This document shows, one piece after another, positions 1-58,154 of a stretch of DNA of 64,000 nucleotides; within the stretch, counting starts at the first letter, position 1, and each line of letters starts with the position of its first letter. The notes under the pieces are model-generated. The model did not search any database and had not been told where the DNA came from. It saw only the letters and a program-made list of their open reading frames with translations. The DNA is taken from positions 88,412,001 to 88,476,000 of the forward strand of contig CM060731.1 of NCBI GenBank assembly GCA_030704615.1, given 5' to 3'. This DNA is from Takakia lepidozioides. Lineage: Eukaryota > Plantae > Bryophyta. Made by a program: the position numbers and the translations under genes.

Positions 1-3000
1 CCCAGCCGCCACCAGCAGAAATGTCTCCGGAGGAATTCCAAAGTGCAGCGGATACAATGTTGGAGGAGACACATAGTAGCATTGGCAGAGTTCTGGGCAG
101 CAGGGTATTCCAGCGGACTCTTCGAATCCCACTCTGTCGCATGGTCTCCCTTCCCACCGTCAGGCAGGCACTTCCCGGAGATGTGGATAAGCTCAAGTTT
201 GCATTTCGAGAAGGGTACCGTCTAGGTTCGCCAGCCTTCTACGTTTCCCTTGAGAATGAGGACGGCGAATCTCGTGGACCCACTGCGGAGGAATTGTCAA
301 CATGGGATACCCACTGGCACACTCGCAACGACGAATTCGAGGCAACCCTGAAGGGTGATCACGACTTCGGCCATATGTCGGGTAAAATGTTCTTTGTGTG
401 GGACGGGAATCACCGACTTCTCGCCTGGTGGGAGTACATCAAGCAGAACCATGCCAAGCACATTGGCTGGCATTACATGGTGGAGTGTGTCATCCTCAAG
501 GTGAAGGCGACAGACTCCTTCTTGCTCAAGAATGCCATGGCGGACCTCAACTCGTAAGATACTCATACCCTCCCAAGCACGTTCGAAATGCGGTGCCGCA
601 TTTCGGTTTCGAATCTGTTTTGTTTCCGTGCTTCCGTGGACTGAACTGGAGAGTGTGCCTTGTAGGGTCACTTAAAATGCATACGTGCATACCCACATGG
701 CACATATGCTGTACAGGGTGAGGAAAACTGGTCTCACTGATCCGCACATGTTCGCGGAAATGCTGGAGCCCGAGCTCATTCAGAAAGCCGTGGCAAAAAC
801 TGACCGGACATGGTATCGTCTCACTATGGATGGAATGGTGGAGGTGATATACGAAGTAAGTCGTCCTCCCATTTCCCTCTGCTCATCCTTCCCCAATTTC
901 CGGTAATCTTTCCACATGAATCGAATGTAACGCTTCTGCATGTTTTTGTTGGCAGTCAAACATCAAGCTGGATTTGGCCCATGCCAAACGCTTCTTCATG
1001 GAAAGTGAGGGGTAGGTCAAAACGTTGCAGTCATTGACTGAGCACTTGAAGGAAGCCGGGGTCAAGTCCAGAACGAAATACAAGTCAAAGCTTGTGAAGC
1101 TGGTGGCCATTGCAGATCCGGCACTTGGAAAGGACTTCATCCCCGAGATTGCAAAACACTATTCTCGGGCCATGCAGCCGACTGTTTCAATTCACTGAAG
1201 TTCCTTCCTAGTAATAGCCACTCTTCTTCCTGCTCCTGACATTGGATCGGAAATGGCAGACACGGTGGCTGTCAATCTGGAATGCATCGGAGAGTATAAG
1301 GACTCTGCGAGTACGTTGGTCTCAACTTTTGCTCACGCATGCTGACTGCCCTGCAGGTATATGAAATACGTGCTTCTTCAGACAGGAACAGCAGAAACAG
1401 ATAGTGCAAGTAGAGGGTGAGGAAGAGGACTCCGATGGAGACTTTGCAACCAGCCCACCCCCCGAGACGCAGCCAAAATCCCCTGTGCCCACCATTGTCA
1501 CGAGAGGGACGAGAACAGGCTTAGTCAAGAAGGCACTCTTCAACCCCCCGGGGGGGCACCCTTTTGAGCCGGTGGAAATGAAGAGGCCGAAAGTGGATCC
1601 CGATACAGTAGTCCAGTGTGTGAATGAGAGTTTCATGGCGGCTCTGGACGGACGGGCAGCCAAGTTGGCATACATCAAGACCATGGAGGGTCTGAAGGGC
1701 AGAGCACTGAAGAAGGCGGCTGAAGCAGAGCCTTCCGACACCCCTTGGTTTCTGAAGATGGTCTCGTTCTTCGAGAAGGTGTGTGCAGGGAAGGATTGTA
1801 GGAGGGGAGGAAAAGCCATAGAGTGGTCTTGCGATATGATCATCTTGGATATTCCGGACGGAGAGCCTGTGGAAGGACTGCAAGCTTTGCCATCTTGGAA
1901 CAGGTACTCCGAGGACTTTTGGAAGAAAGGATTCGGGCTCGCCCGCATGGTGTTGGACGACAGAGGCTGTGTGGTTGTCCTGGCAAGCAGAGGCAAAAAC
2001 ACAGAGACAGGAATTGCGAAGTGGACCCGCAAGAGCGTCATCCCAATTCTGAAGAAGAAGTGGACGTGCATCAACACATTGGGCCTTCGGTCGGAAGGGG
2101 AGAAGGTAATTAGGACATTAGCAATCTTCCTTTCATTTTGTAACCTGTTTTGAAATGCGGTGCCGCATTCGATTTCTAATCGTTCCCCACTGTGTATGCA
2201 GACGAAGCAGTTCGATGCATACTGCTTTGTGAAGGAGAACTCAACCTTTGCTTTCCGGAAGGAGGGATTGTTGGTTGACCCGAACTGCGACCCCATTGAT
2301 TACGACGTCCTGTTCAACAACGTTCCCATGGAACTTCTCCCTCATAGCCTCACTTCAACTGAACCCCTGCGGTATTCATGCACTCAAAGCCCTGCCGTCA
2401 TTCAGACAATTATGGAGACATGCACTGACGTGGAGGGCACAGTGCTCGACCTCATCTGTGGGACAGGTATGCAGAATCTTGTTGTATGCTTTTCTGCAAA
2501 CTCTCGTTATGCTTTCATTCGCAACATCTGAAGGGCCATGTCATAATGTGTGGATGGCATTGTAACAGGTGCCTCAATGTGGGCTGGGCGGTTTTCCGAC
2601 CGGCACTCTTTGCCTACGAGGAGGACACAGGCGTCTGGGGATCCCATCTGGAAGGGCTGCAACGGAATGTGAAGGCTCCCATCGAAGTCAAAGACTCCTC
2701 GGATTTGTCGGAGTCGGAGGAAGAGACAGTGGACATTGATGCCGAGGAGAACCCGGAATACGAGTGAGTGCAAACATTGTAAGTTTGCAAAGCCTTCTGT
2801 GTGATTTTTTGTCAAATGCATATCCGGACTGTGGTTCTCATTGGTCTCGTTGGTGATTGTAATGTGCAGGATTGGAGGATCCGGGTCGAAACATGTAGGG
2901 CCTACACTTCCTGCCAGGAAGAATGTCCCGTTCTTTGCGAGGGCCGACTTCATGACGAGCCCGGTGAAGGACTACTCCCTTCCTAGTTATGCAGCTAAAC

Positions 3001-3340
3001 TCGCAAATACACCGATTAGACGATGTGAGAAAATCCCAGTTAAGTAGAGCAGATTTTGGAGAGGGCTAGGGAGGACAGAAGGATAAGGAAAGAGTTGGCA
3101 ACAGCTGAGGCAGGTAGACGGGTGCGAAAGTTCATATGTGATTCAGCGGATGAGAGCGATGCAGAAAGGGAGGACGACGAGCCAACGGAGGTGAGATGGT
3201 CGGTTCTGCAAGGTGAAGATGGGATTTTTGAAAGCCTGGCCAACGACCAGTCCGCTGAAGATGAGAAAAGCAATGACGGGGTGGAGGCGGAGCAGAACAG
3301 TCAAGGACAGGACGACAGTAGTGATGATTTTCAAGATTAA
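1..3340 (+). pseudogene. Intron-containing ParB/Srx-like + beta-class N4C/N6A DNA methyltransferase-like fusion gene, decayed; frame is open off the 5' edge of the window
   Basis: Approximate exons <1-553, 666-855, 956-1310, ~1383-2105, 2202-2467, 2569-2763 and 2870-3340, mostly joined by phase-compatible GT-AG introns (the 1310/1383 junction is unresolved). ParB-type motif FVWDGNHRLLAW is in exon 1. MTase motifs occur in beta order: CDMIILDIPDG (motif IV position), ARMVLDDRGCVVV, then SPAVIQTIMETCTDVEGTVLDLICGTG|ASMWAGRFSDRH..FAYEED (motifs X/I/II). In-frame stops at 673, ~1013 and ~1196; frameshifts near 2605 and 3045; acidic C-terminus. Confidence 0.72.
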
Positions 3341-3476
3341 TACAATTTTGATGAACTCTCTGTACATTTAAATTCAATTCCAGAGTATATAAAGGCAATT
3401 CTCCCCGTCCTTCATGTCCCCTCTCCCATGTGCTTCTAAACGACAACATCGTCCAAACCTGGTCCCTCCCAAAATC

Positions 3477-4517
3477 TGAAATGCGGCACCGCATTTCAAT
3501 GTCTGAACGGAAATGTGGGAACTGCAAAAACCTCGTTTGGAAATGCGGCACCGCATTTCCAAAACCGGAGCAAGAACAAATTTCCGTTTCATGGTTTGGA
3601 CATCAGAAACTGTTCGGACAAACGGAAATGCGGTGCCGCATTTCCGTTTCCGACACGACAGTTTTGCCGATTGCCAGCTCCTTCCATGGATGTAAATCGA
3701 AATGCGGAGGTCGAACATGGAAATGCAGTGCCGCATTTACCTTTTGGAGATGGACATTTTTCCAACTGCAGACCCATCGACGTTCTTGGGCTCCCAATTC
3801 CATGATGCTAGACGGGAATGCGGCACCGCATTCCATTGAATAAGAAATTTCGATGACGTACATGGAAATGCGGCGCCGCATTTCCAAAAGGGACATCGTT
3901 GTTTGCCCAATTCCACACCCTTTGATGGAAATGCGGCACCGCATTCCATCATCCTATAAAAACTTACATTGTCCTATAAAAACTTTCAATTGCCCAACAT
4001 GGGAAATGCGGCGCCGCATTTCCAAAACAGACATCGTTGTTTGTCCAATTCCAGACCCGTGTGGGCATTCCGTCTTGATGGACGGAAATGCGGCACCGCA
4101 TTCCATTGTCCGATTCGATATTTTGATGACAGACATGGAAATGCGGTGCCGCATTTCCAGAACTTCCATCGTTGTTTGTCCAATTCCAGACCCTTCGACG
4201 GAAATGCGGCACCGCATTCCATTGTGCTCTCCGGAAATGGTGTGCCGCATTTCATTGTCCGGTACAAAATTTCGATGACGGACATGGAAATGCGGTGCCG
4301 CATTTCAAGTATGGACATGGACAAGCATTAGCGACTGGACATGCTTGGATGGTTCAAGTCGAATATGGAAATGCGGCGCCGCATTTCAAATTCGAAGTAT
4401 GGTAATGCATGTCAGGAAATGAAATGTTGTACAGCATTTCCGTCACGACGACAACGGAGGAAAGGGAGCTGCCAGAAATCGCTTCATAGAGAAAATGGAA
4501 TGCGGTGCCGAATTTCC
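3477..4517. repeat. Array 1 of a 22-bp palindrome GGAAATGCGG-(CA/TG/CG)-CCGCATTTCC (16 copies plus half-sites)
   Basis: Copies start at 3477, 3539, 3624, 3719, 3814, 3864, 3927, 4002, 4084, 4137, 4200, 4233, 4286, 4367, 4420 and 4496. Single copies also occur at 584 and 2151 (inside introns of the upstream gene) and at 5654. Confidence 0.95.
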
Positions 4518-4793
4518 GAGCTTCGGCGTATACATGTTTCCTACAACTCATACATGGATTTTCTTCACCTCAGGACTGTGATATCGCTGACTCTGGTATA
4601 TTCATATGGACAGACACATTGTAGAAATGAGTCCTCAAATTGTAAATAGTGGGCCAATTACGGCAGTTCTTGAACACGATGAAACACAAGCACACAGAAG
4701 TGAGGTACGATGGGTTGTTTTATTGATCGAACACGGTGTCTCACATTTAGCAACTCCAGACAAATCTAAGCCCTTCCTCCTTCTACATGGGTG

Positions 4794-5372
4794 TCACCAA
4801 GTCGACGGAACTTCGATAGCCCTCAAAACAAGCTCATTACTGATGCGGCATCTCGAGGTAAACTGCAATGCGGTCGATCTGGTGCCTTTGGTGGAGCTGA
4901 CGACAATGTCATGCCCATCAATCATACCACCATCATACATTGACAAGGTCATTGTGGGCCTCCTATGCCCGTGCGATTCGTCTTCGCAACTCAGCCGAAT
5001 GTCTCCATACACTGGAAAAGCGGAGTGAACTCCACGAATATAGTTTTCCCCGGTGCCGTCCTCCCTGGTCCACTGGCAGCAGTTCCAGCGCCAAAGTGAG
5101 GCCGTGCGTGATCTGTCCGGCATCCCATTCCACCTTGGTATATCGAGGTCAACAATTTTCAGGACCCATGGACCGCATTGACCCTCGCCCTCACCTCGCT
5201 CAAAGCGGTAATAGCCCTCCAGATACTCCATTGCGCGCAAAGACTCCCGCTTGATTCCAGATGCGTCTGTGAAAACTGAAAGCCAGACAATGATCTCTCC
5301 TGATTCTGGTTTGAACATAGCATAATCGTGGCCATGATAAGGGCAATCAGCAGGATTTTGGCGGCACGGCAT
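4794..5372 (-). CDS. Unknown ~192-aa protein (paralog A); frame open upstream to 5495
   Basis: Uninterrupted ORF MPCRQNPADCPYHGHDYAMF...ELVLRAIEVPSTW. It aligns along its full length at protein level with the ORF at 5930-6492, which supports coding status. Confidence 0.6.
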   Translation of the reverse strand: MPCRQNPADCPYHGHDYAMFKPESGEIIVWLSVFTDASGIKRESLRAMEYLEGYYRFERGEGEGQCGPWVLKIVDLDIPRWNGMPDRSRTASLWRWNCCQWTREDGTGENYIRGVHSAFPVYGDIRLSCEDESHGHRRPTMTLSMYDGGMIDGHDIVVSSTKGTRSTALQFTSRCRISNELVLRAIEVPSTW

Positions 5373-5631
5373 CCCTGAAAAAGAGTAGCGCAGTACGCTC
5401 AATGACAGCAGCTCCCCGGATGGAGGAGGTAGCAGCGCGGTGGCTAGAAGAAATTCAAGCAAACGCTGCAATTCCTCACAAACACTCCAGGGCAAATTTA
5501 AATTTCCCCCCGACAGGAACGTGCACGGATGAAGATTGGCTCATCCATGAATGTAGCCGTTTCAGTTTCCTTCCCTGCCATGCAAACTATGGGCAGTAAG
5601 TGCCAGGTGGGCCTATAGCCACTCGAGACGA

Positions 5632-5694
5632 CGAAGTCCATCCCCCCTTTGATGTAAATGCGGCGCCGAATTTCCATCCGGGGGATGGACTTCG
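5632..5694. promoter_or_regulatory. 63-bp hairpin/inverted repeat between the divergent paralogs, with one palindrome copy at its centre
   Basis: Perfect 15-bp arms CGAAGTCCATCCCCC (5632-5646) and GGGGGATGGACTTCG (5680-5694) enclose GATGTAAATGCGGCGCCGAATTTCCATC. The structure is seen directly; a regulatory role is inference. Confidence 0.6.
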
Positions 5695-5929
5695 GTGGCA
5701 GATTTCAAACTATACCCCGTGGATGAGAAAGAGGTATCGGTTCATCCACCGCTGGCGTGTTGAACACGTTACACGATGATTGGTGGGTACTTGTGACCCA
5801 GATGGTCCATTATTGGAGCCCGCACTGCTCTTCCGCTTCTCATCATTTCGAAAATCTAAGGGCTTCGTTGCTGTCCGCAAGGTCATTGTCATCGGCATCA
5901 AAGACGTCCTCAGGTCCTCCTTTGCAAGG

Positions 5930-6492
5930 ATGTCGTGCTTCCGGAACCGGGACGACTGCCCTTATGGAGGCATCGATTATGCAATGTATTCGGCCACATC
6001 GGGAGACATCGTTCTCTGGTACACAGATTACACAGAAGATACTGGTTCGAATGTGGAAACATTGTCCGCTTTTGAGTATCTCCCAGGCCAGTACGCCTTC
6101 GAGCAGGGTGACGATCTTGGTCTGAGGAGTCCGTGGCTCCTGCGCATCTTGATTCCGATTTTCCCAGCTACGACGGGCACCCATGCAGAAGAATGCGCAC
6201 TGCTATGCTGTTGCGGTGGAACTGCTGCCAGTGGACGTGGGTGGACTCCATCGGAGAGACTTATACTCCTGAAGGAGTGCGCTCATCTTCTCCATTGTAT
6301 GGGGACATTCACATTGGTGTGGACGGCGAAAACGTGAAGCTTTCCATATTCGATGGTGGTATGATTGAAGGGCAGGACATTGTGGTGAACATCAACAGGG
6401 GCGGTACAACGGCTGCAATCCAGTTTACCTGGAGGAGCCCGAAGACTCATGAGCTAGTTCTCAGAGCAGTCGAAGTCCCATTGACAACGTGA
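5930..6492 (+). pseudogene. Unknown ~187-aa protein (paralog B) with one frameshift near 6147
   Basis: MSCFRNRDDCPYGGIDYAMY...PWLLRI[fs]LDSDFPSY...LRWNCCQWT...YGDI...SIFDGGMIEGQDIVV...ELVLRAVEVPLTT; colinear with paralog A. Confidence 0.6.
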
Positions 6493-6946
6493 CTTGTATT
6501 CAGAAGGCACAGGGCTAAAGATTTGTTTGCACAATCAGCACAGTAGACGTGCTTCAAATGCAATTCATGTGGATCAATAAAAACCCAATTGTGCCCTCTT
6601 TTTGTTCTATTCTGTATCCATCGTTCCCAAAATACGTCATTCCTCATTTCGTTTGGGATTGGGAGTGTGGGTGGATTTTGCAAGTGGCTGGTAGGCTGAA
6701 ATGGGCCCCCATTGTACAGATCAGTACCACCCTACCATTCGCGAAACATTGCCTTTCAATATGTAATTCTAAAAAACATTGCCGAACCTCCTTCATCGGG
6801 AGGTCCTTCTCCCCCTATGACCGTGACACCCTAAACCCTATTCTCGCGGACACTTGTTTCCGGAAAATAGTCCTGCTCATGTTTTTTTCGACACTTACGA
6901 CTCTGCTCATGGCTCATGGCTCATGGCTCATGAAATAGCAGCCCCC

Positions 6947-7863
6947 GGACAGAAGGATAAGGAAAGAGTTGGCAGCAGCTCAGACAGGTAGACGGGTGCG
7001 AAAGTTTATATGTGATTCAACGGATGAGAGCGATGCAGACAGGGAGGACGACGACCCAATGGAGGTGAGATGGTCGGTTCCACAAGGGGAAGATGGGATT
7101 TTTGAAAGTCTGGCCAACGAGCAGTTCGCTGGACATGAGAAAGGCAATGACGGGGTGGAGGCGGAGCAGGACAGTCAAGGACAAGACGACGATAGTGATG
7201 ATTTTCAAGATTAGTAGAATTTTAATGAACTCTCTGTACATTTAAATTCTCTTCCAGAGTATATAAAGGAAATTCTCCCCATCCTTCATGTCCCCTCTCC
7301 CATGTGCTTCTAAACGACACCATCGTCCAAACCACGTCCCTCCCAAAATCGGAAATGCGGCACCGCATTTCCATGTCGGAACGGAAATGTGGGAACTGCA
7401 AAAACCTCGTTTGGAAATGCGGCACCGCATTTCCAAAACCGGGGCAAGAACAATTTTCCGTTTCATGGTTTGAACATCAGAAACTGTTCGGCCGAACGGA
7501 AATGCGGTGCAGCATTTCCATTTCCGACACGGCAGTTTTGCCGATTGCCAGCTCCTTCCATGGAGGTAAATGGAAATGCCACCCCGCATGCGGAGGTCGA
7601 ACACGTTATTTAAATGGCGGACATGGAAATGCGGTGCCGCATTTTCATTTTGGAGATGGACGTTTTTCCAACTCCAGACCCATCGACGGAACTGCGGCTC
7701 CGCATTCCATTGTCCAATAAGAAATTTTGATGACGTACATGGAAATGCGGCGCCGCATTTCCAGAACGGACATCGTTGTTTGTCCAATTCCAGACCCTTG
7801 GACGGAAATGCAGCACCGCATTCCATTGTCCAATGAGAACTTTTGATTGCCAAACATGGAAAT
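6947..7863 (+). repeat. Direct duplicate of 3073-4007: 3' end of the ParB-MTase gene plus palindrome array 2
   Basis: Starts GGACAGAAGGATAAGGAAAGAGTTGGCA as at 3073 and encodes the same acidic C-terminus (...DDFQD*). Palindromes at 7351, 7413, 7498, 7572, 7625, 7688, 7741 and 7804, with a cut half-site at 7858. Confidence 0.93.
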
Positions 7864-7865
7864 AA

Positions 7866-8473
7866 CACTCAAGGAGGCGGAGGCGCTCACTAGGTGGAGC
7901 CCCGCACACCGGGTTGCGGTGGGGGTGGCTCCACAAGGGGTGGTGGTAGCTTAGCGGGACTTAGTGGGGGTGGCATAGGACTCACCATGGGGTGGAGACC
8001 TCGAGGTGGGAGTCGTGGGGAGTCTTGGGACTCATCACGGTCCATTGGGGCCGCGGTGAGTGGGCCAAGACTCACCGCGACTCACCACCGGGAATCGAGG
8101 GTCTTCGTGGTGGTTCGCCATAAAATGGCATGGCTGGTTGTGAAACCCCCGCGGACAGCTACAGAAGTATATATAGGGAGTAGTAACCCCGAGAACGGTG
8201 CAAGCCCGTTGGTGACCAAAAACTAGTGAGTAAGCGAGCGAGCCGGAAAGCGACCAAAGAGTGGGGAGCTGTTCCGGACTGCCAACTACAAAAGGAATTC
8301 CCGCTGGTTCCAAAGCGGTGGAGGGTTCTTTGGGAGAACAAAGGGGGACCGTTATGCCCGGTGAGCAGCCGAAGCTCCAAGTTGGCCCGGCGGCCAGGTT
8401 AGGAGTCAGGCGCGCGCATCAAAGCGAGTAACTATGACTTGAGGGGGAGCTTACCGAAGGGAGGTGCGCGACA
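7866..8473 (+). repeat. 5' LTR (only the 3' ~610 bp remain)
   Basis: Matches 14108-14717 with a few differences; ends ...GCGCGACA just before the PBS. Confidence 0.92.
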
Positions 8474-8475
8474 CT

Positions 8476-8487
8476 TGGTATCAGAGC
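8476..8487 (+). promoter_or_regulatory. Primer-binding site complementary to initiator tRNA-Met
   Basis: TGGTATCAGAGC, 2 nt after the LTR end. Confidence 0.92.
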
Positions 8488-8528
8488 TTAGAGTTCAGTA
8501 CGCGATCGTCCTTGGGATTGGCCTCATC

Positions 8529-11500
8529 ATGGGGTCGGGCAAGCCAAAGCGAAAGCGGAACGGCCCAAAAGATGATGATCCTGGTGAGCCCGATGGGGGC
8601 GACGTGTCACCGAGGCGGTCGTTTGAGGAAGCGATGAATGTTTCCAAAAACGAGGCCGCTCAAGAGCGGGAGGAATCCGAGGAGTCGGAGCCCGAGGAAT
8701 CCTTGAGAGCTCCGAAACCAAGAGATGCCTCCCATGCCGGCAGCCTTTTGGGAAGGGTTGTTGGCGCAGTTTGGCGGGACGTTGAAAGACGTGTTGAAGG
8801 CGGCTAATGCCACTTCCACTAAGGCAAAGTTTAAGGTGAAGCCTAAGGAACCCGCACCTTCGAGGGCGTTCGAAATCGGAAGGCACTCAACACCTGGCTC
8901 CTGGAGCTAGAGCAGTACTTCCGGGCGGCCAAGTTGAGTGACGAGGATCGGGTGGAAGTGGCTCCCACCTATTTGAGGGGCTATGCTCAACAATGGTGGC
9001 AGAAACGCCTTCACGACCGAGGCCCAAGCCCGGAAACCTTGAACTGGAGTGGGTTCAAGGAATTGATGAAGAGACAGTTTGTGCCCCTCAACGCGTCCTG
9101 GCTTGCCCGGGACAAGATGAGGAATTTGAAGCAAACAGATGACATTCGGGGTATGTCCAGGCTTTCAATGTGCTGTTGCTCGAAGTCGCGGACATGGCAG
9201 AACCAGAAATGGTCTTCAACTTTGTGGCGGGACTGGCCCCATGGGCCAGGCGGAAGTTGGAGGAGAAGCCACCCAAGACTTTGAACGAGGCAATTGAGAG
9301 GGCTGAATGTTTCTCGGATGTCCCTAGGGGTGAGAGACAAGGCCGTACGGAGCTGAACCACAAGAAGACCCGGCGGGAAGGTGACTCCTTCCGACCGGAA
9401 AAGAAGTGGGATAGGCCACGCGGCGACAATGGCACGTGGAAATCGAAGGGAGGGCCTTCACACGTCAAGGCGGCACCCGGTGCTTCGAAAGGAAAAGCGG
9501 GTGGAGCGGCTTATGGCGGACAGAAGGCGACCTTTGATGGAGTGTGTTTCAATTGCGGGGAGCCCGGGCACATGGCCAAGAAGTGCACAAACCCTCGACA
9601 ATTGAACATGACTCGGGCAACCACGGAGCTGTCGGAAGATACCATCAGTCGCTTGGTGGAAGCGGTGGTCGCCAGGACTTGCAAGGTAGGCAACTATTCT
9701 TGTGAGTTGTATCAGGAAACTGGCGCCCTGCGTAAAGGGAGTCAGTTATTGTTCGTGGATGGGATAATATCCGGAACTAACGTGTCGTTGTTGGTGGACA
9801 CAGGAGCGTCGCACTCCTTCATGACGCCGGCGGCGGCGCGAAAGTTGGGACTCCCGACAAGTGACGTGGGGGCCTCTATTGAGGTGCGCTCTGCCAAAGG
9901 AGAACCTCAGTTGGCGACAAGGTTGGCGTTTGATGTTCCTCTTCAACTGGGGAGTTGGGGGGGACGTGAGAACTTCACCATCTGCGAGATCGATGGAGTG
10001 GATCTCATTTTGGGGATGACCTTTTTGAGCAAATCCGGAGCGGTCATAGATGGCCGCAAGAGAGTAGTCACGCTGCCATGTGGGAATGGTGGCGAGGTTT
10101 TACGAGTGTCGGAAACGCCCAAATCCGTGGGAGGGCGAATAAACCTTCTGTCAGCAAAGGAGTGGGCCGTGGAGGAGGCACACGAGTCCCATTTTTGCTT
10201 TACATTAGAGAAGTGAAAGGAGAAGGCGATGGGGAGCCGAGCCCAGATTGGATCAAGGGGATTTTGGAGAAATACCAGGATGTGATGCCGGAGGATTTAC
10301 CAAGCGGCTTGCCACCGCGAAGAGGAGTTGACCACAAGATTGAGGTGATACCGGGATCGGAACCGCCTGCCAAGGCGCCCTACCGGTTGAGCCACAGAGA
10401 GTTGGTCGAGCTGAAGACTCAGCTCAAGGATCTAATGTCAAAGGGGTACATCCGGCCGAGTAAGTCACCTTACGGAGCCCCGGTGCTATTCGCAGACAAG
10501 AAGGATGGGACGCTGCGGATGTGTGTCGATTACAGGGCTTTGAATAAGGTGACTATTAAAAACCGGTACCCTTTGCCAAGGATCGACGACCTTTTCGATC
10601 GGTTGGCAGGAGCGAAGTATTTCAGCCGGATCGACTTGCGCTCCGGCTATCATCAAATTCGGGTGGCGGAAGGAGATGAGGAGAAGACCGCGTGCAGGAC
10701 AAGGTATGGTTCATATGAGTTCTTGGTGATGCCTTTTGGGCTCACAATGCACCGGCGACCTTTAGCACGCTGATGAACAGCCTTTTCAGGAGTGGTTGGA
10801 TGACTTTGTGATCGTGTACATCGACGACATCTTGGTGTACTCGAAAACAAAGGAGGAGCACCTGGAGCACCTCAAAAGGGTGTTCCAAAAGTTGCGGGAA
10901 GGGAAGCTGTATGCCAAAGCTTCAAAATGCGAATTCGGGGTCACGAAAGTGGAGTTCTTGGGGCATGTGATTACACAGGATGGGATCAAAATGGATGACA
11001 GAAAGGTGAGGGCGATCTTGGACTGGGAGCCTCCGACTTCGGTCCCGGGAGTGCGATCCTTCCTAGGACTCGCCTCCTATTACCGGAAGTATGTGAGAAA
11101 TTTCGCCAAGATCGCGGGGCCGCTGTCAGACCTTCTGTGTAAATCCAAAGTCTGGGTATGGAACACATTTTGTGGCCAAGCTTTTGCTGAATTGAAGCAG
11201 CGGATGGCGGAAGCTCCAGTCTTGAAAATCCCGGAGTTCGATCGTCCATTTGAGATTCATACAGATGCGTCGGACTTCGCGATTGGGGGTGTACTTATGC
11301 AAGATGAACGTCCAGTGGCTTACGAAAGTAAGAAACTGAATGAAGTGGAGCGACGGTGGCCGACGCACGAAAAAGAGATGAAGGCGGTGGTGCACTGTCT
11401 TGAGCTTTGGCGCCACTATGTTGGTTCCAACCCAGTGAAGGTGTTCACGGACAATGTCACGGTGAAGTATTTTGCCACGCAGCCCAAGTTGTCCCCAAAA

Positions 11501-13083
11501 CAACTTAGGTGGCAAGATACTTTGGCGGTGTTTGACGTGGATATCCAGTACAAACCGGGACGAGACAACGTGGTGGCCGATGCTTTAAGTAGAAAGCAGC
11601 AGCTCTTGTTGGTGTACAAGGGCGAGACGGCGCTCCAAAGGAAGATCCGGAAGGCTTGCCGGAAGGATGAGCTGGCGAAGTCCGTGATGCAGGACTTGAG
11701 GATGGGGGTTAAATCGCAGTTCCACTTGCAAAATGGACTGCTCCGGTATAAGCAAAAACGTCTCTACGTGCCAAAGGGAGGGATCAGAGATAGCCTCTTG
11801 AGAGAATGCCATGATAGCCCGCTTGCGGGCCACGGCGGAGCCAAGCGCACTGCGGCACTCTTGAAGAAAGAGTATTTCTGGCCCAAACTGAGGGAGGAGG
11901 CAGAGGAGTATGTCAAGACATGCACCACATGCCAACAAAACCGGAGCGAGTACAAAAAGCAAGCGGGGCTGTTACAACCCTTGCCGATTCCAGAGGGGAC
12001 TTGGGAAAGCGTCTCGATGGATTTCATGACTGCTATGCCGCTGTCAAAAGGATTCGATGCAATCATGGTGGTGGTGGATAGGTTCAGTAAAATGGGCCAT
12101 TTCATCCCCACCAAGGAGACGGCAACGGCGCAGGAGACATGGCGACTTTACTTCGCCCACGTCTTAAAGCATCATGGAGTCCCGAAGGATATTGTCTCGG
12201 ATCGCGATCCAAAGTTTACGAGTAAATTTTGGAGGACACTTTGGAAGAAGATGGGGACGAGGCTGAAGATGAGCACCGCCTTCCGACCTACGACGGACGG
12301 CCAAACGGAAAGAGTGAATTCCGTAGTGAAGCAATTCTTGCGGAATTACGTGTCGGCAGACCAATCAGACTGGATGGAACACTTAGATGCGGCAGAGTTC
12401 TGTTATAATAACACAGAACACTCCGCAACGGGAGTTTCCCCTTTCGTATTGGTCTATGGAAAAGCACCTCTGGTGCCGACAAGTTGGGCCGCCCAGGACG
12501 TTGAGGAACCGGCAGTAGCGGCGGTACTGGAAGAACGCGAGCGTTTGTTGAAGCTCGCAAAGTACAACATTGCCAAAGCTAGGAAACGGTATGAAAGGCA
12601 GGCGAATCGGAAGCGGAGGGAAGTGAAGTTTGAGGCAGGCACAGAGGTCTGGTTGAACACAAGAATTTCCGACTACCTCCGGAAGTGAGTCCGAAGTTCG
12701 TACCTCCGTATGCGGGACCCTTTCGCATTCGGAAGGTTATGAATGAGGATGTGTATGAATTGGAGCTGCCGGCAAACAGCAAGGTGCACCCAGTATTCCA
12801 TGTCTCTCTTTTGAAGCCTTACTTCAAAGATGAAGCGCGTCCGAATCGACATCAAGTGTTGCGTCCGCCACCTATGCTGTTGGATCATGAAAATGAACCT
12901 GAGTACGAGGTGGAGGCAATACTTAAGTCGAGGAGGTTCAAGAACCAAGAAACGGAGTATCTCGTCAAATGGAAGGGCTATCATCATGTGGAGGCATCTT
13001 GGGTGCGTGCCTCAGAAATGGGAAACGCATCCGAGGCGGTTGCAGCTTTCGAAGGGCGACCTCAAAAGCGGAAGAAACGTTGA
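8529..13083 (+). pseudogene. gag-pol polyprotein of the chromovirus, broken by about 6 frameshifts
   Basis: Zinc knuckle CFNCGEPGHMAKKC; protease LVDTGASH; RT VYIDDILVY; RNase H TDASD; integrase HHCC plus SMDF/SDRD/GQTER; chromodomain EYEVEAIL...EYLVKWKGY...SW. Confidence 0.93.
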
Positions 13084-13117
13084 TGGGGACATCAACCTTG
13101 GAGCGTGGGGGAGGAAA

Positions 13118-14717
13118 TGCATGCCTAGCCCGGCTTAGCTAGCTTAGGAATCCGATTACAAAAACTTGTATTGTACAAAAATTTGTTATAAAGGAAATGG
13201 GTTCCAAATGTTGTGCGTCCTATTTTGTTTGGAATGGTGATGCATGGTATGGTTGGCTAGTGTGTAGAATGCATGCTAGCTTATAAAAGTGGGAGAGGTA
13301 AATTGGGTTAATCGTGTGTTTGCGTAGTGCCGAAATCGGGTGACCCCCATCCAAGGGGCAAGGAAACTTGCGACTTCTTTGGGAGTTCACGTGCTAGTGC
13401 GCACCTGGCGCGTGCGCATACTATAACTGCGCTACCGAGGGGGTTGCCTTGTAGTGCGGGCTAACGCGGAAGCTACGTGCTTCCGTTCACGTACTATAAT
13501 TATGTAGCCTCGGGACGAAGTCGTAGTGCGGCTTCGGCGTGTTCCCGTACCTCAGGCCAGCATTCCAAGGCGGACCCAATTGTAGTGATTGGGGCGCACG
13601 GTTGGTTCAAGGTTATCTTCCTAGTCAAAGAGGGTTCCAGGTGAACCCTTGCTCAAGGTGATGCCAAAAAGCGGCATCATGAGCGGTCGCAAGCAATGTT
13701 GTTGCAATAAGGCGATTCGATCCTCAAGGAGGATCGTTCCTTGGCCTTGAAGTAGGCCAAGAAGAGTGCACTGGGAGGAGCTTGAGAGGCTCCACCCTTG
13801 GCCGGGACTTGGAGGAAGTCGGCCGAACTAGCTAGTGGAGAGTAGAGTCAAGTGTGGGGTTTGGTTCTTTGCCATGGGACGCCATGGTACGGAAACAAAC
13901 TCCTTGATGTGGGACGCCACAACTTGGATGTTCGTTTCTACAAAATGGACAAGTCGATGAGGACATCGACTCCCTGTTGGTAGGGGTGTGTGTCGCGGCC
14001 CTTTGCCTTGACGGCAGAGGGGGTCGGGACACAAGAGGGGCTGCCCCTGTGGTGGGGGCAGTAGCAGCGATAGGTACGGGGGCTGAAGCACCCTTGAGTG
14101 CCCAAGGCACTCAAGGAGGCGGAGGCGCTCACTAGGTGGAGCCCCGCACACCGGGTTGCGGTGGGGGTGGCTCCACAAGGGGTGGTGGTAGCTTAGCGGG
14201 ACTTAGTGGGGGTGGCATAGGACTCACCATGGGGTGGAGACCTCGAGGTGGGAGTCGTGGGGAGTCTTGGGACTCATCACGGTCCATTGGGGCCGCGGTG
14301 AGTGGGCCAAGACTCACCGCGACTCACCACCGGGAATCGAGGGTCTTCGTGGTGGTTCGCCATAAAATGGCATGGCTGGTTGTGAAACCCCCGCGGACAG
14401 CTACAGAAGTATATATAGGGAGTAGTAACCCCGAGAACGGTGCAAGCCCGTTGGTGACCAAAAACTAGTGAGTAAGCGAGCGAGCCGGAAAGCGACCAAA
14501 GAGTGGGGAGCTGTTCCGGACTGCCAACTACAAAAGGGAATTCCCGCTGGTTCCAAAGCGGTGGAGGGTTCTTTGGGAGATAAAAGGGGGACCGTTATGC
14601 CCCGGTGAGCAGCCGAAGCTCCAAGTTGGCCCGGCGGCCAGGTTGGGAGTCAGGCGCGCGCATCAAAGCGAGTAACTATGACTTGAGGGGGAGCTTACCG
14701 AAGGGAGGTGCGCGACA
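13118..14717 (+). repeat. Full-length 3' LTR (~1.6 kb)
   Basis: Begins TG right after the purine tract and ends ...GCGCGACA; its 3' part matches the 5' LTR remnant. The start is inferred from the PPT position. Confidence 0.8.
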
Positions 14718-16929: not shown

Positions 16930-18333
16930 CCATAGATCCACCAACGAGCTTCTCCTCATCTATGTTATCTGTTTTTGGATACTTTCCTGCTGCCACATCA
17001 GCTGTAACTTGTCAAAGTCACTCCTAACCACCACAGATTCACCCAACGAGCTAACTTACAGAATTAAATATGCATCTCAGGCCGGCCGAGTCTGATGAGA
17101 AGGTAAAACAGGCAGAAATAGGTTGAAGAAGAAGGTGCCCTCACCACATTGTCGTTGACCCTGTGTCATGACCCATAGAGGATTTGACCGAACATCAACC
17201 CAAAAGGACCCCTTGTGTGTGCAGCTTGTGTGTGCAACATTCAGAATGACATCCGGTAATCTGACAGGCATTCATTTTTTTGCCTCGGTTGTCCCACCAT
17301 TGGCTGGGGTCAGAAAAGTATTCATCCCACAACTTCTCCTCATCTCTGTTACCTATTTTCGGATACTTTCCTGTTGTCACATTGGCAGTATCATGTCAAA
17401 GTCACTCCAAACTACCAAAGATTCACTCAACTGCTGCCACATCAACAGTAACTTGTCAAAGTCACTCCTAACCACCACCGATCCACCCAACGAGCTAACT
17501 TATAGAGTTCAATATGCATCTTAGGGACGAGTCTGATGAGAGGGTAAAACAAACAGAAATAGGTTGAAGAAGAAGGGGCCCTCACCACATTGTCCTTGAC
17601 CTTGTGTCATGGCCCATGGAGGATTTGACCGAACATCAACCCTAAAGGACCTCTTGTGTGTGCAGCTTGTGTTTGTAGCCTTCAGAATGACATCTGGTAA
17701 TCTGCAGGCATTCACCTTTTTGCCTCGTTTGTCCCACCATTGGCTGGGGTCAGAAAAGTATTCATCCCACAACTTCTCCTCATCTCTGTTCACCTATTTT
17801 TGGATACTTTCCTGTGTCACATTGGCAGTACCATGTCAAAGTCACTTCAAACTACCAAAGGTTCACTCAATCAGCTAACTTGCAGAATTCAACATGGAAA
17901 TGTAGGGCCAATTCTGATAAGAGGGGAAAACAGGGTGAAATGTGTTGAAGAAGATGCTTCTCCTACCCTATGTTATCTGTTTTTGGATACTTTCCTGCTG
18001 CTATATCGGCAGCTTGTCAAAGTCACTCCTAACCACCACCGATCCACCCAATGAGCTAAAGTACAAAATTCAATATGCATCTCAGGGCCGAGTATGATGA
18101 GAGGGCAAAACAGGCTGAAATAGGTGAAAGAAGAAGCTGCCCTCACCACATTGTCCTCGACCTTGAGTCATGATCCATGGAGGATTTGATCGACCATCAA
18201 TCCAAAAGGACCTCTTGTGTGTGCTGCTTGTGTCCGTAGTCAGGTACTGTCGGATCGCTCTGTGAGAACCACCACGCTTCCACCACGGTGCAGCTGAGCA
18301 GACGCCGATTGACACACGGCCTGCTAAGACCAA
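16930..18333 (-). pseudogene. About 3 decayed tandem copies (~430-560 bp units) of an OSB-type 'PDF' ssDNA-binding motif
   Basis: EEKLWDEYFSDPSQWWDNRGKKVN...PD...KHKLHTQEVLWVDVRSNPPWV can be read across frameshifts. It matches the W..FF..P.EWWDNR..K.NP..PDFKHK.T.E.LW pattern of plant organellar ssDNA-binding (OSB) proteins. Confidence 0.7.
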
Positions 18334-21969: not shown

Positions 21970-22463
21970 TGTGATGGCTCATGTTCTCCTAGCCTGACTT
22001 TCAGCCTATTCATTACTGTCTGACAAGTTCATCCATGCCATTAGTATTTACGGCGGGAGACCGTTATACATAGCCTGACCTATACTTGTTTGAGGTTATC
22101 CTAGAGCTTTGTGGCTGCATCTGGCCCCTTCATTGGTCTACGGGCCAGATCTGTTTGTAATCTAGGCACCCCGTGGCATGCTGCCACGTGGGGGTATTGC
22201 CTCACCCTAGGTTTTGGGTATAAACTTGTTCTTGACCTTGAGTCAGGGCCCTTCTTATCGTATGTACAACCTGGTGTACGGGCTTCTGGACGTGCTCTGT
22301 GAGCTTTGGATGTGTGTGTGTTAGCTCTGCATATGCTGTACGTGGGATCCTCTATAAGTTCATCTCCCTTCTCATGCTGTAAAGCCCGCTCCTTCCGAGC
22401 TCTTACACCCCTAGTTTAACGTGCACTTGTGAGGATGGGAGAATGTCATTCAAGCACAAAATA
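21970..22463 (+). repeat. 5' LTR
   Basis: TGTGATGGCTCATG...CAAGCACAAAATA, highly similar to 29373-29865. Confidence 0.92.
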
Positions 22464-22471
22464 TGGTGGAG
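22464..22471 (+). promoter_or_regulatory. Probable PBS (tRNA-Ala-like, TGGTGGAG)
   Basis: Directly abuts the repeat end; complementary to a ...CTCCACCA tRNA 3' end. Confidence 0.55.
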
Positions 22472-22648
22472 TCTTGTGGGTAGTGGCGGCTCCGCACGTA
22501 CAGTGATTTTGCGCGGTTACCTCAGGTTGAATCTGGTTTTTGAAGCAAAGTTTTTGGGCTCAAGAAGAGGTTGCGATGGCGGCGGCAGCCTCACTCTTCG
22601 CGTTGTGCAATTTCATTTCCTTGCCTTGCTTGTTTTTCCTGTGTTACA

Positions 22649-23869
22649 ATGACATATGCAGTTCTATGTAGTTTGTCGAGCGAGAGAGAGGACAGTGGTT
22701 CTATTTTAGTTAAGATTGAACTGAGAGTGGAGGTTGCAGGTTCTGATGTGGTTGGTTCCAGCCAGTTAGTTTTGGGTGTTCCTATGTTTGCTTCCAGTTT
22801 ACAGGTAGTGGAGGGTCATCCCGTCTCGGAAGTGCCTGCAGCTCTTGTCGCGCGTGTTCCATTGTTGATTCCAGGGGTTCCTGTTCCTGACATTGAAAGA
22901 CCTACCTCCTTAGGCTCTAACTACTCAGCGTATGCAAGGGCCGAAGCGGCCTTTGAAGAAAGAACCTTGTATTCGGCTCGTGGCTCACTGAGTTCGGGCT
23001 CTTTGCCAAGCGGTGACCCTTGCAGAGCTGATTACGGTTTGGGCTACGTTGAGCCTGCTTACGATCTTGAGGGGCTGCCTGATGTTAACTCGCAAATCCA
23101 GGACTCTCTTGTGTTTGACAGTGAGCAGCTCGAGTTGAGCAGTGACGACTTGGTGTGGATCGATAAATTTGAATCTCGATTTTTTGTGGACGTCTCGCGT
23201 TTCTCAGCTACTGAACGGGAGAGAGTCTCTGCCTGGATCAGCGATCCTGCTTTACTGGTGAGAGAAGTTCATAGTGTGATTGACAAAGAGCTAGCTTTGA
23301 GGAGACAGTTCAAGGTGCCTATCCCCGAACTCAAAAGTCGATTTTTGTCTTACGGTGCCTTGGAATTTAGGCAGTTTGGGCTTTGTGAACAAATCTCCGT
23401 GCAATCCCTTGACGTTCCGCTGGTGTCCTGCGATTTTGTGGATCCTTGGCATTTGGCTTTGTTCACCAGTGGCATTGGTGCGATTTTGTTACGATTGTTA
23501 AGATTTGGGAGTCTTGCACCTACTACCCGTGACCTTGTTGATTCTCTCACCGGTCATAGTGAGAAGGCTCTTCAAGGAGATCTTGTTATTCTTCCTCACG
23601 AGCTATTCGCTCTCCGCTCAATTCGCAAACTGAACATTTTTCACTCCATCGGGCATTGGCCGCCGAGCACTGTCTTGTCTCGAACTTGGAGAAGTGACCG
23701 TTACTGGGGGTCGGACTACACCTTGTATGTGGGTTTTTGGTTCAAGAATTCCCGCGGGTGGAATTTGTTGGTTCTTGCTGAGCACGATCAAGAGACACAC
23801 AAGCTTTTGGTGATTGTGACTCCACAAGCTTGGCAGTGTACCAGTGTGGTGGAAGTTGAAGATGTCTAA
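22649..23869 (+). CDS. Extra ORF upstream of gag (~406 aa from first ATG), unknown function
   Basis: Long uninterrupted frame (22571-23869) between the PBS and gag; no recognisable motif. Confidence 0.6.
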   Translation: MTYAVLCSLSSEREDSGSILVKIELRVEVAGSDVVGSSQLVLGVPMFASSLQVVEGHPVSEVPAALVARVPLLIPGVPVPDIERPTSLGSNYSAYARAEAAFEERTLYSARGSLSSGSLPSGDPCRADYGLGYVEPAYDLEGLPDVNSQIQDSLVFDSEQLELSSDDLVWIDKFESRFFVDVSRFSATERERVSAWISDPALLVREVHSVIDKELALRRQFKVPIPELKSRFLSYGALEFRQFGLCEQISVQSLDVPLVSCDFVDPWHLALFTSGIGAILLRLLRFGSLAPTTRDLVDSLTGHSEKALQGDLVILPHELFALRSIRKLNIFHSIGHWPPSTVLSRTWRSDRYWGSDYTLYVGFWFKNSRGWNLLVLAEHDQETHKLLVIVTPQAWQCTSVVEVEDV

Positions 23870-23888
23870 AGGTGGTAATTCCTAACTA

Positions 23889-25537
23889 ATGTCCAACTCG
23901 CCCAATAGCCGTTGGTTGCGTTCAGGTAGAAATAGAATATCTGCTGCTCTTGTGTTATCTCCAATCACTGAGCCTCGACATAGGACTTTTGTAGAGTCAG
24001 ATTTGGTATCAATGGAAGAAGGATTTAGTGGGGTTGATGGTAGAAATCAAGCCAGGGCTTCCAATGGTCTTGGACCTGCGGTAGCCACTAGCACCAGGCC
24101 TGGCTTGGGTGGTAGAATTCGGGAAAACTTGGATGTTGCACATGATACGAGGGCCAACATGTATGCCATGGATTTCCATGCACGACGGATGGACGGCGTG
24201 GATCACGTAGGGGAGTCACCTGCAGGTCAACCTAGCATCTCAGTTTTGAGTTCTGCTCTACCGGCAGAATTGAGGCCTATTTCCTTGCATGACAATCCTC
24301 AATTTCAAGGTATGCCTGTCACCTCCTCTCGTGCATCTCATCCTTGTACGTGGCTAGTGAGTCCGCTTGGTCTGGCCCTGTGCGAAGCCAAGTGCTTGTA
24401 CAAAGTCAACCAGCTCTTCAGTCATGGTCCAGTGCCCCACCTACTGTATTACCTCTCTCCCGGGCTATGGGAGGGATGGCAGTTCATGAGGATGGAGGTG
24501 CAAGGTCAGGTTACAATAATTTGGGAATTCAGCCAGTAGCTTTTCAGGGACATGGGCATGCTGGTCATGTATACCATGTAGCACCGGTGACTACTTATGC
24601 CTATCCTGAGTATAACATGGGAAAGAAGATAGAGAATTTTTTGGAATTGTTTGAAGTCAGTGCTCAAATGAACAAAGCTACGGAAGAGGTCATGATAGGT
24701 ACATTCCGTATGAGCATGCAAGGAGAAGCCAGTGATTTGTTGCATGTTGCTTTGAGTGGTGAAGAAAACCTGACTTGGGCCAAGGTTAAAAGAAGAGCCC
24801 TCATGATCTTTAAACCTGCGGAGAGGCCTTTGGATAGCCTTGACAAACTTTGTGGCCGGCCATACAAGGAGGGTGAGTCTCTTTGGCAATACTTTTTAGA
24901 ATTAAGGGCTGCTGCTGTTGAACAAGTGCCCGAAGATGTTGTTATTAGGGAGAGATTGCTAAGACAACACTTCTTGAGAGGCATGCCAGCGGAAGTTAAA
25001 GCTTTGGGACAACGTCGTACTTTCAGGGATAGTGATGAGATATTGCATGAGGTTAGTCTTAAGCTTAGGGACCTGGCTGAAGCAAAGCAAAGGCGACACC
25101 ATGTGAAATTTCAGATCCCTTATATGGATCATGAAGACACCGCCACATTTGATGAGAGAGAGACCTCACTTGTTGGGTCTGAGTCTAGTGACTCTGCTTT
25201 GCAAGAACTGGCTTACACTGTGGGTGAGTTGGGAAAAAACATAGCTACTCAATTTGCAGCCTTGAAGGCTGATCAGCAGAGTACTAAGTGGAGACCCAGA
25301 GACCAGCAAAGAGCTGAATACAAGCCCAGAGATGAGCAGAGAGGTAGAGGTGGAGGGTTCAGAGGTAAGACCCAAACAGGGGCCACTTATGAGAGGAAGT
25401 TTGCTCCCTGTTATATTTGTGGCAGTGATGAGCATTATACCAAGGTATGTCCTGACCGTGAGGGCTATGCTGATTATGTCAAAGAGAAGAAGAAGGCATG
25501 GTCTTCCAATCAGGGTGCTCACACACATTTAAACTAA
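23889..25537 (+). pseudogene. gag (one frameshift near 24340)
   Basis: N-terminal RWLRSGR, capsid-like helical region (IENFLELFE...ESLWQYFLEL) and zinc knuckle CYICGSDEHYTKVC. Confidence 0.8.
25528..25534 (+). promoter_or_regulatory. -1 ribosomal frameshift slippery heptamer T TTA AAC
   Basis: Lies immediately before the gag stop, in the correct X XXY YYZ register; the pol ORF (25498-) is in the -1 frame. Confidence 0.75.
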
Positions 25538-28500: not shown

Positions 28501-29028
28501 TTCTACCGAATGTTGGAGAAGAATGGCGAGCTTGCAAGGGAGTGGGACATCTTCATTCCTCCTCTGGTCTTTGCTTATCGCACTGCTGTTCATGCTAGCA
28601 CGAGGAAAACTCCTTTTGAGTTGCTTTATGGTAGACGTTGTGTCTCTCCTTTGCATCCCACTCCACTGATTTCTACTATTTCTGAGCCTGCTGACTTGAC
28701 TGATTTTGTAGAGATGGTGCATGCTAGGCACATGGTCTCGGTTAATGAGACTAAGGCTAACATTGTTCTTGCTCAAGCAGTACAGACTAGGAATTTTAAC
28801 AAGCGGGTTAAGTACTCAGATCACTTCCATGAGGGACAGACTGTGTGCCTACGTCTTCAGCATGGGCAGCATGCATGTAAATCTAAGCGGAAGATCGATG
28901 GTCCTAATTTGTTGTACAAGTTGCTTCGTGGGAGACGTGCTTTGATTTTACCGCAGGGACACAATACGAAAGCACATGAGGAACCAGTGACACTTGCAGA
29001 TTTGATTCGGAGCTGGTTTTTGACTTGA
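25528..29028 (+). pseudogene. pol: protease, dUTPase-like, RT, RNase H, integrase (decayed)
   Basis: VVDTGCTMS; GVLDRGYKEEVKLLIAN...IKKGQVLARI; SLDLASGFWQ, MPFGL, IYIDDINVY; QTNASD...YASRKL; ATDYLTKWVE, LTDNGREF, LTERFNQT. Contains stops, frameshifts, a ~70-bp insertion at ~27704-27772 and loss of the HHCC region. Confidence 0.9.
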
Positions 29029-29372
29029 CATGCATCAATGTTGAGGGGCGATCGGTGGTGCTCACTCCTCGTGGTGTAGGTGCTATGGAGGCTTTGGTTT
29101 TATAGGAGACCTCTCTTGTACTTAGACATCTTTTCATTTCAGATTGTACCCAATATGCTTCCATAGTTGTTTTATAGCCTAGTTTTAGACTTAGCATGAA
29201 ATTCCAATTTGTCCACACGCGTAAGGTTTTCCTTTGCATGGGTTTTGTCCCCCAGGGTTTTCCCATGAAAGATTTTTCACCCTGCGATGTTGGGGAACTT
29301 CATGGTGGGGTAACATCCTTATATTTTACCTCGTGGAGCTCAGATTTTTAAGGGGGGGGAAGCCTTCACATA

Positions 29373-29865
29373 TGTGATGGCTCATGTTCTCCTAGCCTGA
29401 CTTTTAGCCTATTCATTACTGTCTGACAGGTTCATCCCATGCCATTAGTATTTACGGCGGGAGACCGTTATATACAGCCTGACCTATACTTGTTTGAGGT
29501 TATCCTAGAGCTTTGTGGCTGCATCTAGCCCCTTCATTGGTCTACGGGCCAGATCTGTTTGTAATCTAGGCACCCCGTGGCATGCTGCCACGTGGGGGTA
29601 TTGCCTCACCCTAGGTTTTGGGTATAAGCTTGTTCCTGACCTTGAGTCAGGGCCCTTCTTATCGTATGTATAACTTGGTGTACGGGCTTCTGGACGTGCT
29701 CTGTGAGCTTTGGATGTGTTTGTGTTAGCTCTGCATATGCTGTACGTGGGATCCTCTACATGTTCATCTCTTCTCGTGCTGTAAAGCCCGCTCCTTCCGA
29801 GCTCTTACACCCCTATTTTAACGTGCACTTGTGAGGATGGGAGAATCTCATTCAAGCACAAAATA
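29373..29865 (+). repeat. 3' LTR
   Basis: Direct repeat of 21970-22463. Confidence 0.92.
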
Positions 29866-57997: not shown

Positions 57998-58154
57998 GAT
58001 ACACGAGATACAAATTACCACAAAGAAATCTAGTAGATCACCTGCTACAAGAAGACCTCGAGGAGTCAGAGAGTATGACTGGAAAGGAGGACTGGATGAG
58101 GAGCAGGAAGCTACCCTATTTGCTGCACACCCAGAGTGGGAGCAGGTTGCAGAG

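Follow-up and report, generated by a model that had tools for sequence, protein, structure and literature searches.

An accessory gene of the Ectocarpus element Sola1-1_Ec32 is described as encoding a protein of 1104 amino acids (aa) in which a ParB-like domain is joined to an N4/N6 DNA methyltransferase (MTase), and the protein is suggested there to attach to, and to modify, the element that carries it (PMC12477816). In Bostrychia, the Plavaka element (EnSpm/CACTA) is described as carrying PAG2, an N6-MTase with a SET domain, and PAG3, a ParB domain with a 2-oxoglutarate oxygenase, with arrays of inverted repeats beside PAG3 (bioRxiv 2025.02.11.637652). Here we describe a gene of comparable architecture in 64,000 nucleotides (nt) of DNA from Takakia lepidozioides (GCA_030704615.1, contig CM060731.1, 88,412,001-88,476,000), called the window below. 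The gene begins with a ParB-like region and ends in a spliced beta-class DNA amino-MTase domain. With a probability of about 0.5, we consider it a dead copy of a high-copy plant gene whose intact copies likely encode an accessory protein of a DNA transposon, predicted to bind palindromes of its own element and likely with weak or no catalysis.

The Sola1-1 accessory protein has the same domain order as the plant family and a similar size (729-1008 aa in the fern gene models), and it is also borne on a repeat. However, it comes from a brown alga and a Sola host, and the two are likened by described architecture, not by sequence. With Plavaka, a giant element of the CACTA superfamily, the family shares inverted-repeat arrays that adjoin a ParB-like gene; in Plavaka, the two domains sit in different genes, and Pfam recognizes PAG2 (PF01555), whereas in the plant family they are fused and the MTase domain is missed by Pfam. 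Phage fusions of ParB_N with N6_N4_Mtase (Wolbachia WO, Javan159) show the same two-domain order and are a plausible distant source of the plant family, but they are ~410 aa long, their DPPY motif is intact, and their ParB profile did not match the plant family. Fold and the order of motif IV before motif I are shared with the beta-class enzymes M1.HpyAVI, CcrM, M.RsrI, M.MboIIA, and M.PvuII and with phage enzymes of the DIPY type (such as QBX21808.1 and ABY84344.1), as are D-I-P, an HPTQKP-like segment, DxxxGxG, and an acidic motif II. Unlike these enzymes, the plant proteins have the tyrosine (Tyr) of motif IV replaced and the His of HPTQK changed to Arg, and they are spliced and fused to a long helical region and the ParB-like domain.

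An earlier note, made from the letters of this DNA, had compared the domain with the N4-methylcytosine (4mC) MTases of Marchantia and bdelloid rotifers. Such enzymes exist, and Marchantia DN4MT1a/b and bdelloid N4CMT are likewise bacterial-type beta-class MTases in eukaryotes; however, they are described as active SPPY enzymes kept as host genes (bioRxiv 2021.02.12.428880, PMC10406627), and the algal ParB-MTase accessory genes of transposons fit better. That an MTase fold whose catalytic residues have changed can be carried by a transposon or serve as a partner has precedent in the domains of DIRS1 retrotransposons and METTL14, described as inactive, although these belong to other MTase clades and the retroelement DIRS1 bears a PCIF1-like domain; the same source describes chlorophyte Dams fused to ParB-HTH and few N6A-MTases in land plants (Iyer et al., PMC4738411). 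The anti-silencing proteins of VANDAL elements (VANC), as described in bioRxiv 2025.02.11.637652, are analogous by function: an accessory protein acts on its own element, and that description includes no MTase or ParB-like domain. In the literature, we found no description of the family in land plants, of its Tyr loss, or of the palindrome core CGG-NN-CCG reported below; plant members may be listed in Iyer et al. 2011 or in supplementary data to the Ectocarpus, Bostrychia, and Iyer 2016 studies.

The methyltransferase domain and its gene

The class of the domain was examined by profile comparison and structure prediction. A profile of 31 family sequences matched M1.HpyAVI (E value of 2e-6), CcrM (6e-4), and M.RsrI (6e-3), with the D-l-P of the family aligned on DPPY. 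The AlphaFold model of a fern homolog, P0018 (mean predicted local distance difference test score [pLDDT] of 71), had beta-class DNA amino-MTases as its top Foldseek matches (best E value of 8e-10), including M1.HpyAVI, CcrM, M.BceJIV, M.MboIIA, M.RsrI, M.PvuII, and the rotifer N4CMT (2e-5). Motif IV came ahead of motif I in the window, in the profile alignment, and in an alignment with phage enzymes, which is the beta order. According to the model of the homolog, the fold is almost certainly that of a beta-class DNA amino-MTase; the class assignment is secure, on the basis of the fern homolog rather than of the window protein. Pfam gave no useful match for the window exons: with the PF01555 cut-off at 26.7 bits, there was no hit in the window, and the best relative, P0029, scored 24.5 bits. 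The beta-class amino-MTase domain with introns that the earlier note had proposed is therefore borne out by the profile, by the GT-AG introns, and by the model of P0018, which folds as a Rossmann beta-MTase.

Homologs were collected with HMMER from 1.84 billion representatives; the query was the domain read through its introns, with Asp at the fourth position of motif IV. There were 29 matches, all but one of them family members (28 of 29). P0006, a VCBS-repeat protein, was dropped as spurious, and P0007, P0008, and P0024 did not span motif IV, so that 25 of the 29 were counted; matches to the ParB region (P0045-P0048 and P0050) were left out of the motif IV tally. Word-seeded searches with single exons gave no match, a result of low sensitivity, since HMMER later gave 29.

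Four MTase motifs lie in one common frame of the plus strand: CDMIILDIPDG, the motif IV segment (1830-1862), ARMVLDDRG (1941-1967), VLDLICGTG (2442-2468), and ASMWAGRFSDRH (2571-2606). FAYEED (2609-2626) is in a different frame. All five were found where the earlier note had placed them, but the step to FAYEED, which it had described as crossing an intron, also includes a one-base frameshift. GT-AG introns split the domain at 2106-2201 and 2467-2568, and the introns of a related locus, L001, lie at matching positions. The spliced MTase parts of L001 and the window aligned from motif IV through motif I to FAYEED (AAFEED in L001), with 24% identity over 217 columns (pairwise E value of 5e-13). 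L001 is a candidate intact family member (26-3756); its N-terminal and MTase exons were stop-free where checked, and its motif reads DIPE.

Beyond what the earlier note describes, the gene extends well upstream of the MTase domain, which forms its C-terminal end, and its N terminus is ParB-like. The two ends are joined in one gene in the fern gene models and in L001, and the upstream exons A to C of the window (Table 1) were assigned to the same gene as the MTase domain. Among the matches listed in a comparison of neighbors, exon B was matched by L002, L015, and L017.

The window copy is a pseudogene of a high-copy repeat, with two stops (upstream, and likewise absent from the earlier note), one frameshift, and deletions. 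On 3,450 bases, 9,165 contigs of run X1 were placed, and run X3, from the same sample, gave 3,004. The summed depth was ~1-6 x 10^5, versus 38-156 for the single pieces listed; this sum is not a copy number, and the repeat family is marked by its many divergent contigs. The comparison of copies drew on 40 of the 244 rows of the substitution table. In nearly all of the placed depth of other copies, base 1013 was C and the codon hence a sense codon. An additional base near 2605 was found in 58% (X1), 76% (X3), and 100% (X5) of the placed depth, and loose ends at 1386-1412 suggest that upstream coding sequence is missing in the window copy. A nonstandard genetic code was rejected as the reason for the in-frame stops, since the codon at 1013 is a sense codon in other copies. 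Because the window copy is dead, any function belongs to the family.

Exon A had 114 relatives in metagenome contigs, 80 of which were kept and reduced to 55 non-redundant loci. It contains VR-P/x and GNHR motifs, the latter resembling the ParB G-x-x-R box. Its look-alikes in the ESM Atlas were fungal DUF3723 clusters (0.93-0.95, with 173 shared features at 0.95), a cluster with ParB_N on 11% of its members (0.91-0.92), and DUF6551. Against a ParB relationship, every hidden Markov model test for ParB failed, including a comparison at the profile level with ParB domains from phages (9 domains; insert kept or removed), in which the score was no better than that of column shuffles (36 of 100 were as high). 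The full-length fern model had a pLDDT of 36 and no Foldseek match at an E value of 0.001; no relative was found in viral contigs, and tblastn of the L001 domains against phages gave no match. The label "ParB-like" is thus used here as a lead, suggested by motifs and by the language model.

Palindrome arrays and the host element

The palindrome GAAATG-CGGYRCCG-CATTTC had 24 matches in the window, all within 585-7824, and none in 100 shuffles. Related loci had the same core with arms of their own (such as the CCCTCT, AGGTCT, AGGCCT, AGCATT, and TACTTT types), often ~75 nt apart; the arms vary among families, and the CGG-NN-CCG core is constant. A strict rule, requiring CGG-NN-CCG and at least 4 of 6 arm pairs, found 36 sites at 11 of the 55 non-redundant loci, versus a mean of 0.26 and a maximum of 2 in 50 shuffles, and CGG was the top-ranked three-base core under the same arm rule. 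With a rule tolerant of CpG decay, 18 sites were found at 11 of the 55 loci (mean of 0.43 in 30 shuffles), 13 of them upstream of the gene within 2.5 kb. When both rules were combined, the palindrome core was present at 19 of the 55 loci. Regular palindrome arrays, upstream of the gene and inside it, were seen at L002, L025, L016, and L004, with spacings near 74, 127, and 213 nt.

A constant core with drifting arms is the expected look of a site read by an element-encoded dimer, and we predict from this pattern that the protein probably binds CGG-NN-CCG palindromes. Several points count against the accessory-protein reading. By either rule, 36 of the 55 loci had no palindrome, although many of these loci are shorter than 2 kb. 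Moreover, the loci, being related, do not count as independent cases, and the window and four loci had already been inspected when the motif was defined.

The gene most probably belongs to a mobile element. At one related locus (L057, duplicate L053), a decayed CACTA Tnp2 transposase with the domains Transposase_21 (E value of 2.5e-31), DUF4218, and Transpos_assoc was found on the same strand, ~4 kb upstream of the gene. The assignment of the host to CACTA specifically is tentative, and the following results count against it. Of 14 long loci, a single one had a transposase and the other 13 had none, in screens of 150 of 161 stop-free segments of at least 110 aa and of 91 filtered segments of 72-109 aa, from which shorter or more decayed remnants would escape. 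There was no transposase beside the gene in the window, which starts inside the gene. No terminal repeats, CACTA termini, or target duplications, including those of 3 bp, were found, and both ends of the window element are outside the window or deleted; a Ty3 insertion with a truncated 5' long terminal repeat (LTR) interrupts the element at 7866.

The same count of one transposase among 14 long loci would suit a gene that is cargo of another giant element (KDZ/Zisupton, Mutator, Sola, Helitron, Starship-like, or virus-derived) or that moves between types, with the CACTA remnant at L057 a chance nesting. Red-algal accessory genes are described as moving among Plavaka, Mutator, Zisupton, and Fanzor elements (bioRxiv 2025.02.11.637652), and the N-terminal domain is most like fungal DUF3723, described as a conserved Starship cargo gene (bioRxiv 2021.12.13.472469). 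However, the L057 transposase shares the strand of the gene, each of the three CACTA Tnp2 domains is present in it, no different transposase family was found at any locus, and viral contigs held no relative. We therefore regard another host as unlikely, though worth weighing.

Motif IV and catalysis

The window has DIPD at the place of the catalytic motif (D/N/S)-P/I/L-P-(Y/F/W) and does not match it. In the 25 homologs counted, the fourth residue was Thr in 11, Phe in 4, Asp in 3, Glu in 3, Ser in 3, and Asn in 1; Tyr was found in none, and the residue was thus non-aromatic in 21 and aromatic (Phe) in 4. The Asp of the motif was kept in 25 of 25 and the Pro in 24 of 25. Across the copies of the window gene in four runs (206, 151, 3, and 1 contigs; three samples), no variant of at least 1% was found at 1848-1862, and 1806-1935 had only two substitutions at that level, neither inside the motif, in contigs, which drop rare variants. 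The stop-free spliced MTase exons of L001 carry DIPE, and clades keep their own fourth residue, for example, Thr in the fern models. A loss of the motif IV Tyr at the level of the family is highly probable.

Four phage MTases were fetched through a search with P0029; three, checked by script, had DIPY, DVPY, and DIPY, and the fourth had DIPY in the alignment. Since the phage relatives have DIPY or DVPY, Ile at the second position is ordinary and only the Tyr at the fourth is altered. L081-L084 are phage beta-MTases with DIPY or DVPY and DPxAGSG, without the usual Phe. The earlier note had read DIPD as an altered form of DPPY or SPPY. This holds for the fourth position, given the absence of Tyr from all 25 homologs and of variants of at least 1% from the copies, but not for the second; moreover, the other copies and relatives do not have the DPPY that would have marked DIPD as a defect of this copy.

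In a midpoint-rooted tree of 126 columns and 35 rows, six rows of phage enzymes were split off from the plant rows (92/92), and the four sequences with Phe formed one clade (99/97) nested among those with Thr or Ser. This tree, which is short and holds no algal, Marchantia, or rotifer proteins, suggests an early loss of Tyr and then one regain of an aromatic residue (Phe). The DLPF subclade (P0019, P0020, P0022, and P0025) contains the likeliest active family members.

In CcrM, the Tyr side chain is described as stacking on the flipped adenine, with the Asp side chain and main-chain atoms contacting the amine (PMC6787082), and N4CMT has been modelled with the same contacts (PMC10406627). The window keeps DLICGTG (motif I) and YEED (acidic motif II), whereas of 13 family sequences inspected by eye, 5 had another residue for the first Gly of the motif I GxG. 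On this loss, on the free variation at the fourth position of motif IV, and on a conserved Trp that CcrM already has, weak or no catalysis seems slightly favored. On the other side, the kept Asp and Pro and the usable-looking motifs I and II of the window fit an enzyme under selection, and RlmJ is described as active even though the Tyr of its motif IV points away, a Trp being positioned for stacking (PMC3814359). Given the kept catalytic Asp and an MTase that is active without Tyr stacking, pseudo-enzyme and active enzyme both have to be weighed.

Intact copies might instead be active amino-MTases with a rebuilt active site, which would methylate their own palindromes and block or replace silencing by 5-methylcytosine (5mC). 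Apart from the kept Asp and Pro and the RlmJ precedent, this would be consistent with the amine contacts described for CcrM (Asp side chain and main-chain atoms), which are still possible with the family motif, with a Trp that follows motif IV in 24 of 25 homologs, and with motifs I and II of the window and of ferns, which retain DxxxGTG and the acidic residue, respectively. The observed/expected CpG ratio was 1.2 in the palindrome array versus 0.2-0.37 in older repeats and at the kinesin locus. However, the adjoining young Ty3 is also high in CpG (0.86), so that youth can explain the level, and protection and youth are not separable by CpG content. In addition, the fourth position is free to vary (T/E/D/S/N/F), unlike a substitute catalytic residue, the conserved Trp aligns with one that CcrM already has and is therefore no new replacement, and the GxG has decayed in the 5 of 13 sequences. 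An active enzyme is therefore judged unlikely; its product would most plausibly be 4mC, because the conserved palindrome core consists only of C and G. Still less likely is the full scheme, in which land-plant DNA transposons have their own sequence-targeted amino-MTase, a ParB-like module loads on CGG-NN-CCG arrays, and a Tyr-free site writes 4mC against 5mC silencing. If true, plants would have, besides Marchantia DN4MT1, a 4mC system encoded by transposons, whose active site is unusual and whose target can be read from genome sequence.

DIPD and the other odd motifs could also be mere decay of dead repeats from an active ancestor with DIPY. The window copy is dead, most homolog matches are unannotated fragments, phage relatives have DIPY, and the HMMER query, with Asp at that position, brings a small bias. 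This explanation is largely refuted, and we give it very little weight, by the lack of any variant of at least 1% at the motif across copies, the absence of Tyr from all 25 homologs, the DIPE of the stop-free L001 exons, and the residues kept clade by clade. A domesticated host gene like DN4MT1, for which domesticated 4mC enzymes in Marchantia and rotifers would be models, or bacterial contamination is hardly credible and is contradicted for the window locus by the many divergent copies, the broken frame, the palindrome arrays and nested retrotransposons, the conserved spliceosomal introns, and the TSPPY described for DN4MT1 (bioRxiv 2021.02.12.428880), the SPPY of an intact host gene of the DN4MT1/N4CMT type being absent from the window copy.

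Other features of the window and proposed role

The features of the gene and its surroundings are collected in Table 1.

Table 1. Positions of the gene, its palindromes, and the adjoining open reading frames (ORFs) in the window
Feature	Position	Strand	Remarks
Exon A, ParB/Srx-like N-terminal domain (PLCR..VR..GY..FFVWDGNHR)	3-553	+	Truncated by window start; 39% identity to fern P0030
Palindrome GAAATG-CGGYRCCG-CATTTC, intron 1	585-604		
Exon B, premature TAA at 673-675	666-855	+	GT-AG borders; Gln at matching place in L001
Exon C, premature TAG at 1013-1015	956-1182	+	3' border uncertain (~1182): ~63 nt of other copies absent at 1183
Exon, acidic linker and first MTase half (motif IV DIPD at 1848-1859, PSWN, LDDRG)	1404-2105	+	
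GAAATG-CGGYRCCG-CATTTC copy, first MTase intron	2152-2171		
Exon, motif X equivalent and S-adenosylmethionine-binding motif I (LDLICGTG)	2202-2466	+	Aligned to phage-MTase HPTQKP and VIDPxAGSG
Exon, helix after motif I and motif II (FAYEED)	2569-2764	+	One-base frameshift near 2605
Probable last exon(s) and acidic tail, broken	2869-3340	+	Suggested by frames and by partial duplicate at 6947-7842
Array of 15 palindromes downstream of gene	3478-4516		Spacing mostly 50-95 nt
ORF-X, first divergent copy	4757-5385	-	45-49% amino acid identity between copies; WNCCQWT motif
ORF-X, second divergent copy	5917-6529	+	As above
Second copy (86% identity) of gene tail and palindrome array	6947-7842	+	Ended by Ty3 retrotransposon at 7866

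ORF-X had no match in Pfam, PHROG, PDB, or 80 related loci; a hairpin and a palindrome (at 5655) lie between its copies at 5632-5694. The Ty3 retrotransposon (7866-14717) is young and bears a chromodomain; the shared part of its LTRs is 99% identical, the 5' LTR is truncated, and pol has frameshifts. A tandem array at 16948-18239 has units of ~440 nt and shorter, 75-92% identical. A further LTR retrotransposon (21970-29865), with repeats 96% identical, has an extra ORF of 441 aa (22544-23869), without a Pfam match, ahead of a gag-like ORF. At 38287-49854 lies an intron-rich host gene with MyTH4 and a kinesin motor, which we take to be KCBP-like; its exons (38-50 kb) and the several LTR retrotransposons mark the window as green-plant DNA. 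In the segment 57999-63998, an LTR-type pol ORF (1172 aa) precedes a repeat with a 20-nt period and two long ORFs, the one of 697 aa without a Pfam match; a weak DDE_Tnp_4 remnant is on the minus strand at 57773-58237.

The analysis thus shows a beta-class fold and motif order, introns, a window copy that is a pseudogene among many copies, a family that lacks the motif IV Tyr throughout, and palindromes at related loci. In the accessory-protein reading that we prefer, dimers of the protein would load onto the palindrome arrays much as ParB loads onto parS, with the CpG-rich core held or covered by the MTase fold. This might keep the element transcribed, protect it from silencing by host 5mC, or assist the assembly of a transposition complex.

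The window copy itself is a relic only. The family points to an architecture in green plants, akin to the algal one, in the Takakia genome, Adiantum ferns, and plant-like metagenome contigs, that Pfam misses, and it adds two features: the loss of Tyr across the family and a palindrome core that stays fixed while the arms diverge. It provides a candidate protein and a candidate binding site for how plant transposons escape silencing, and it bears on whether the 4mC and N6-methyladenine of seed-free plants have a mobile-element source.

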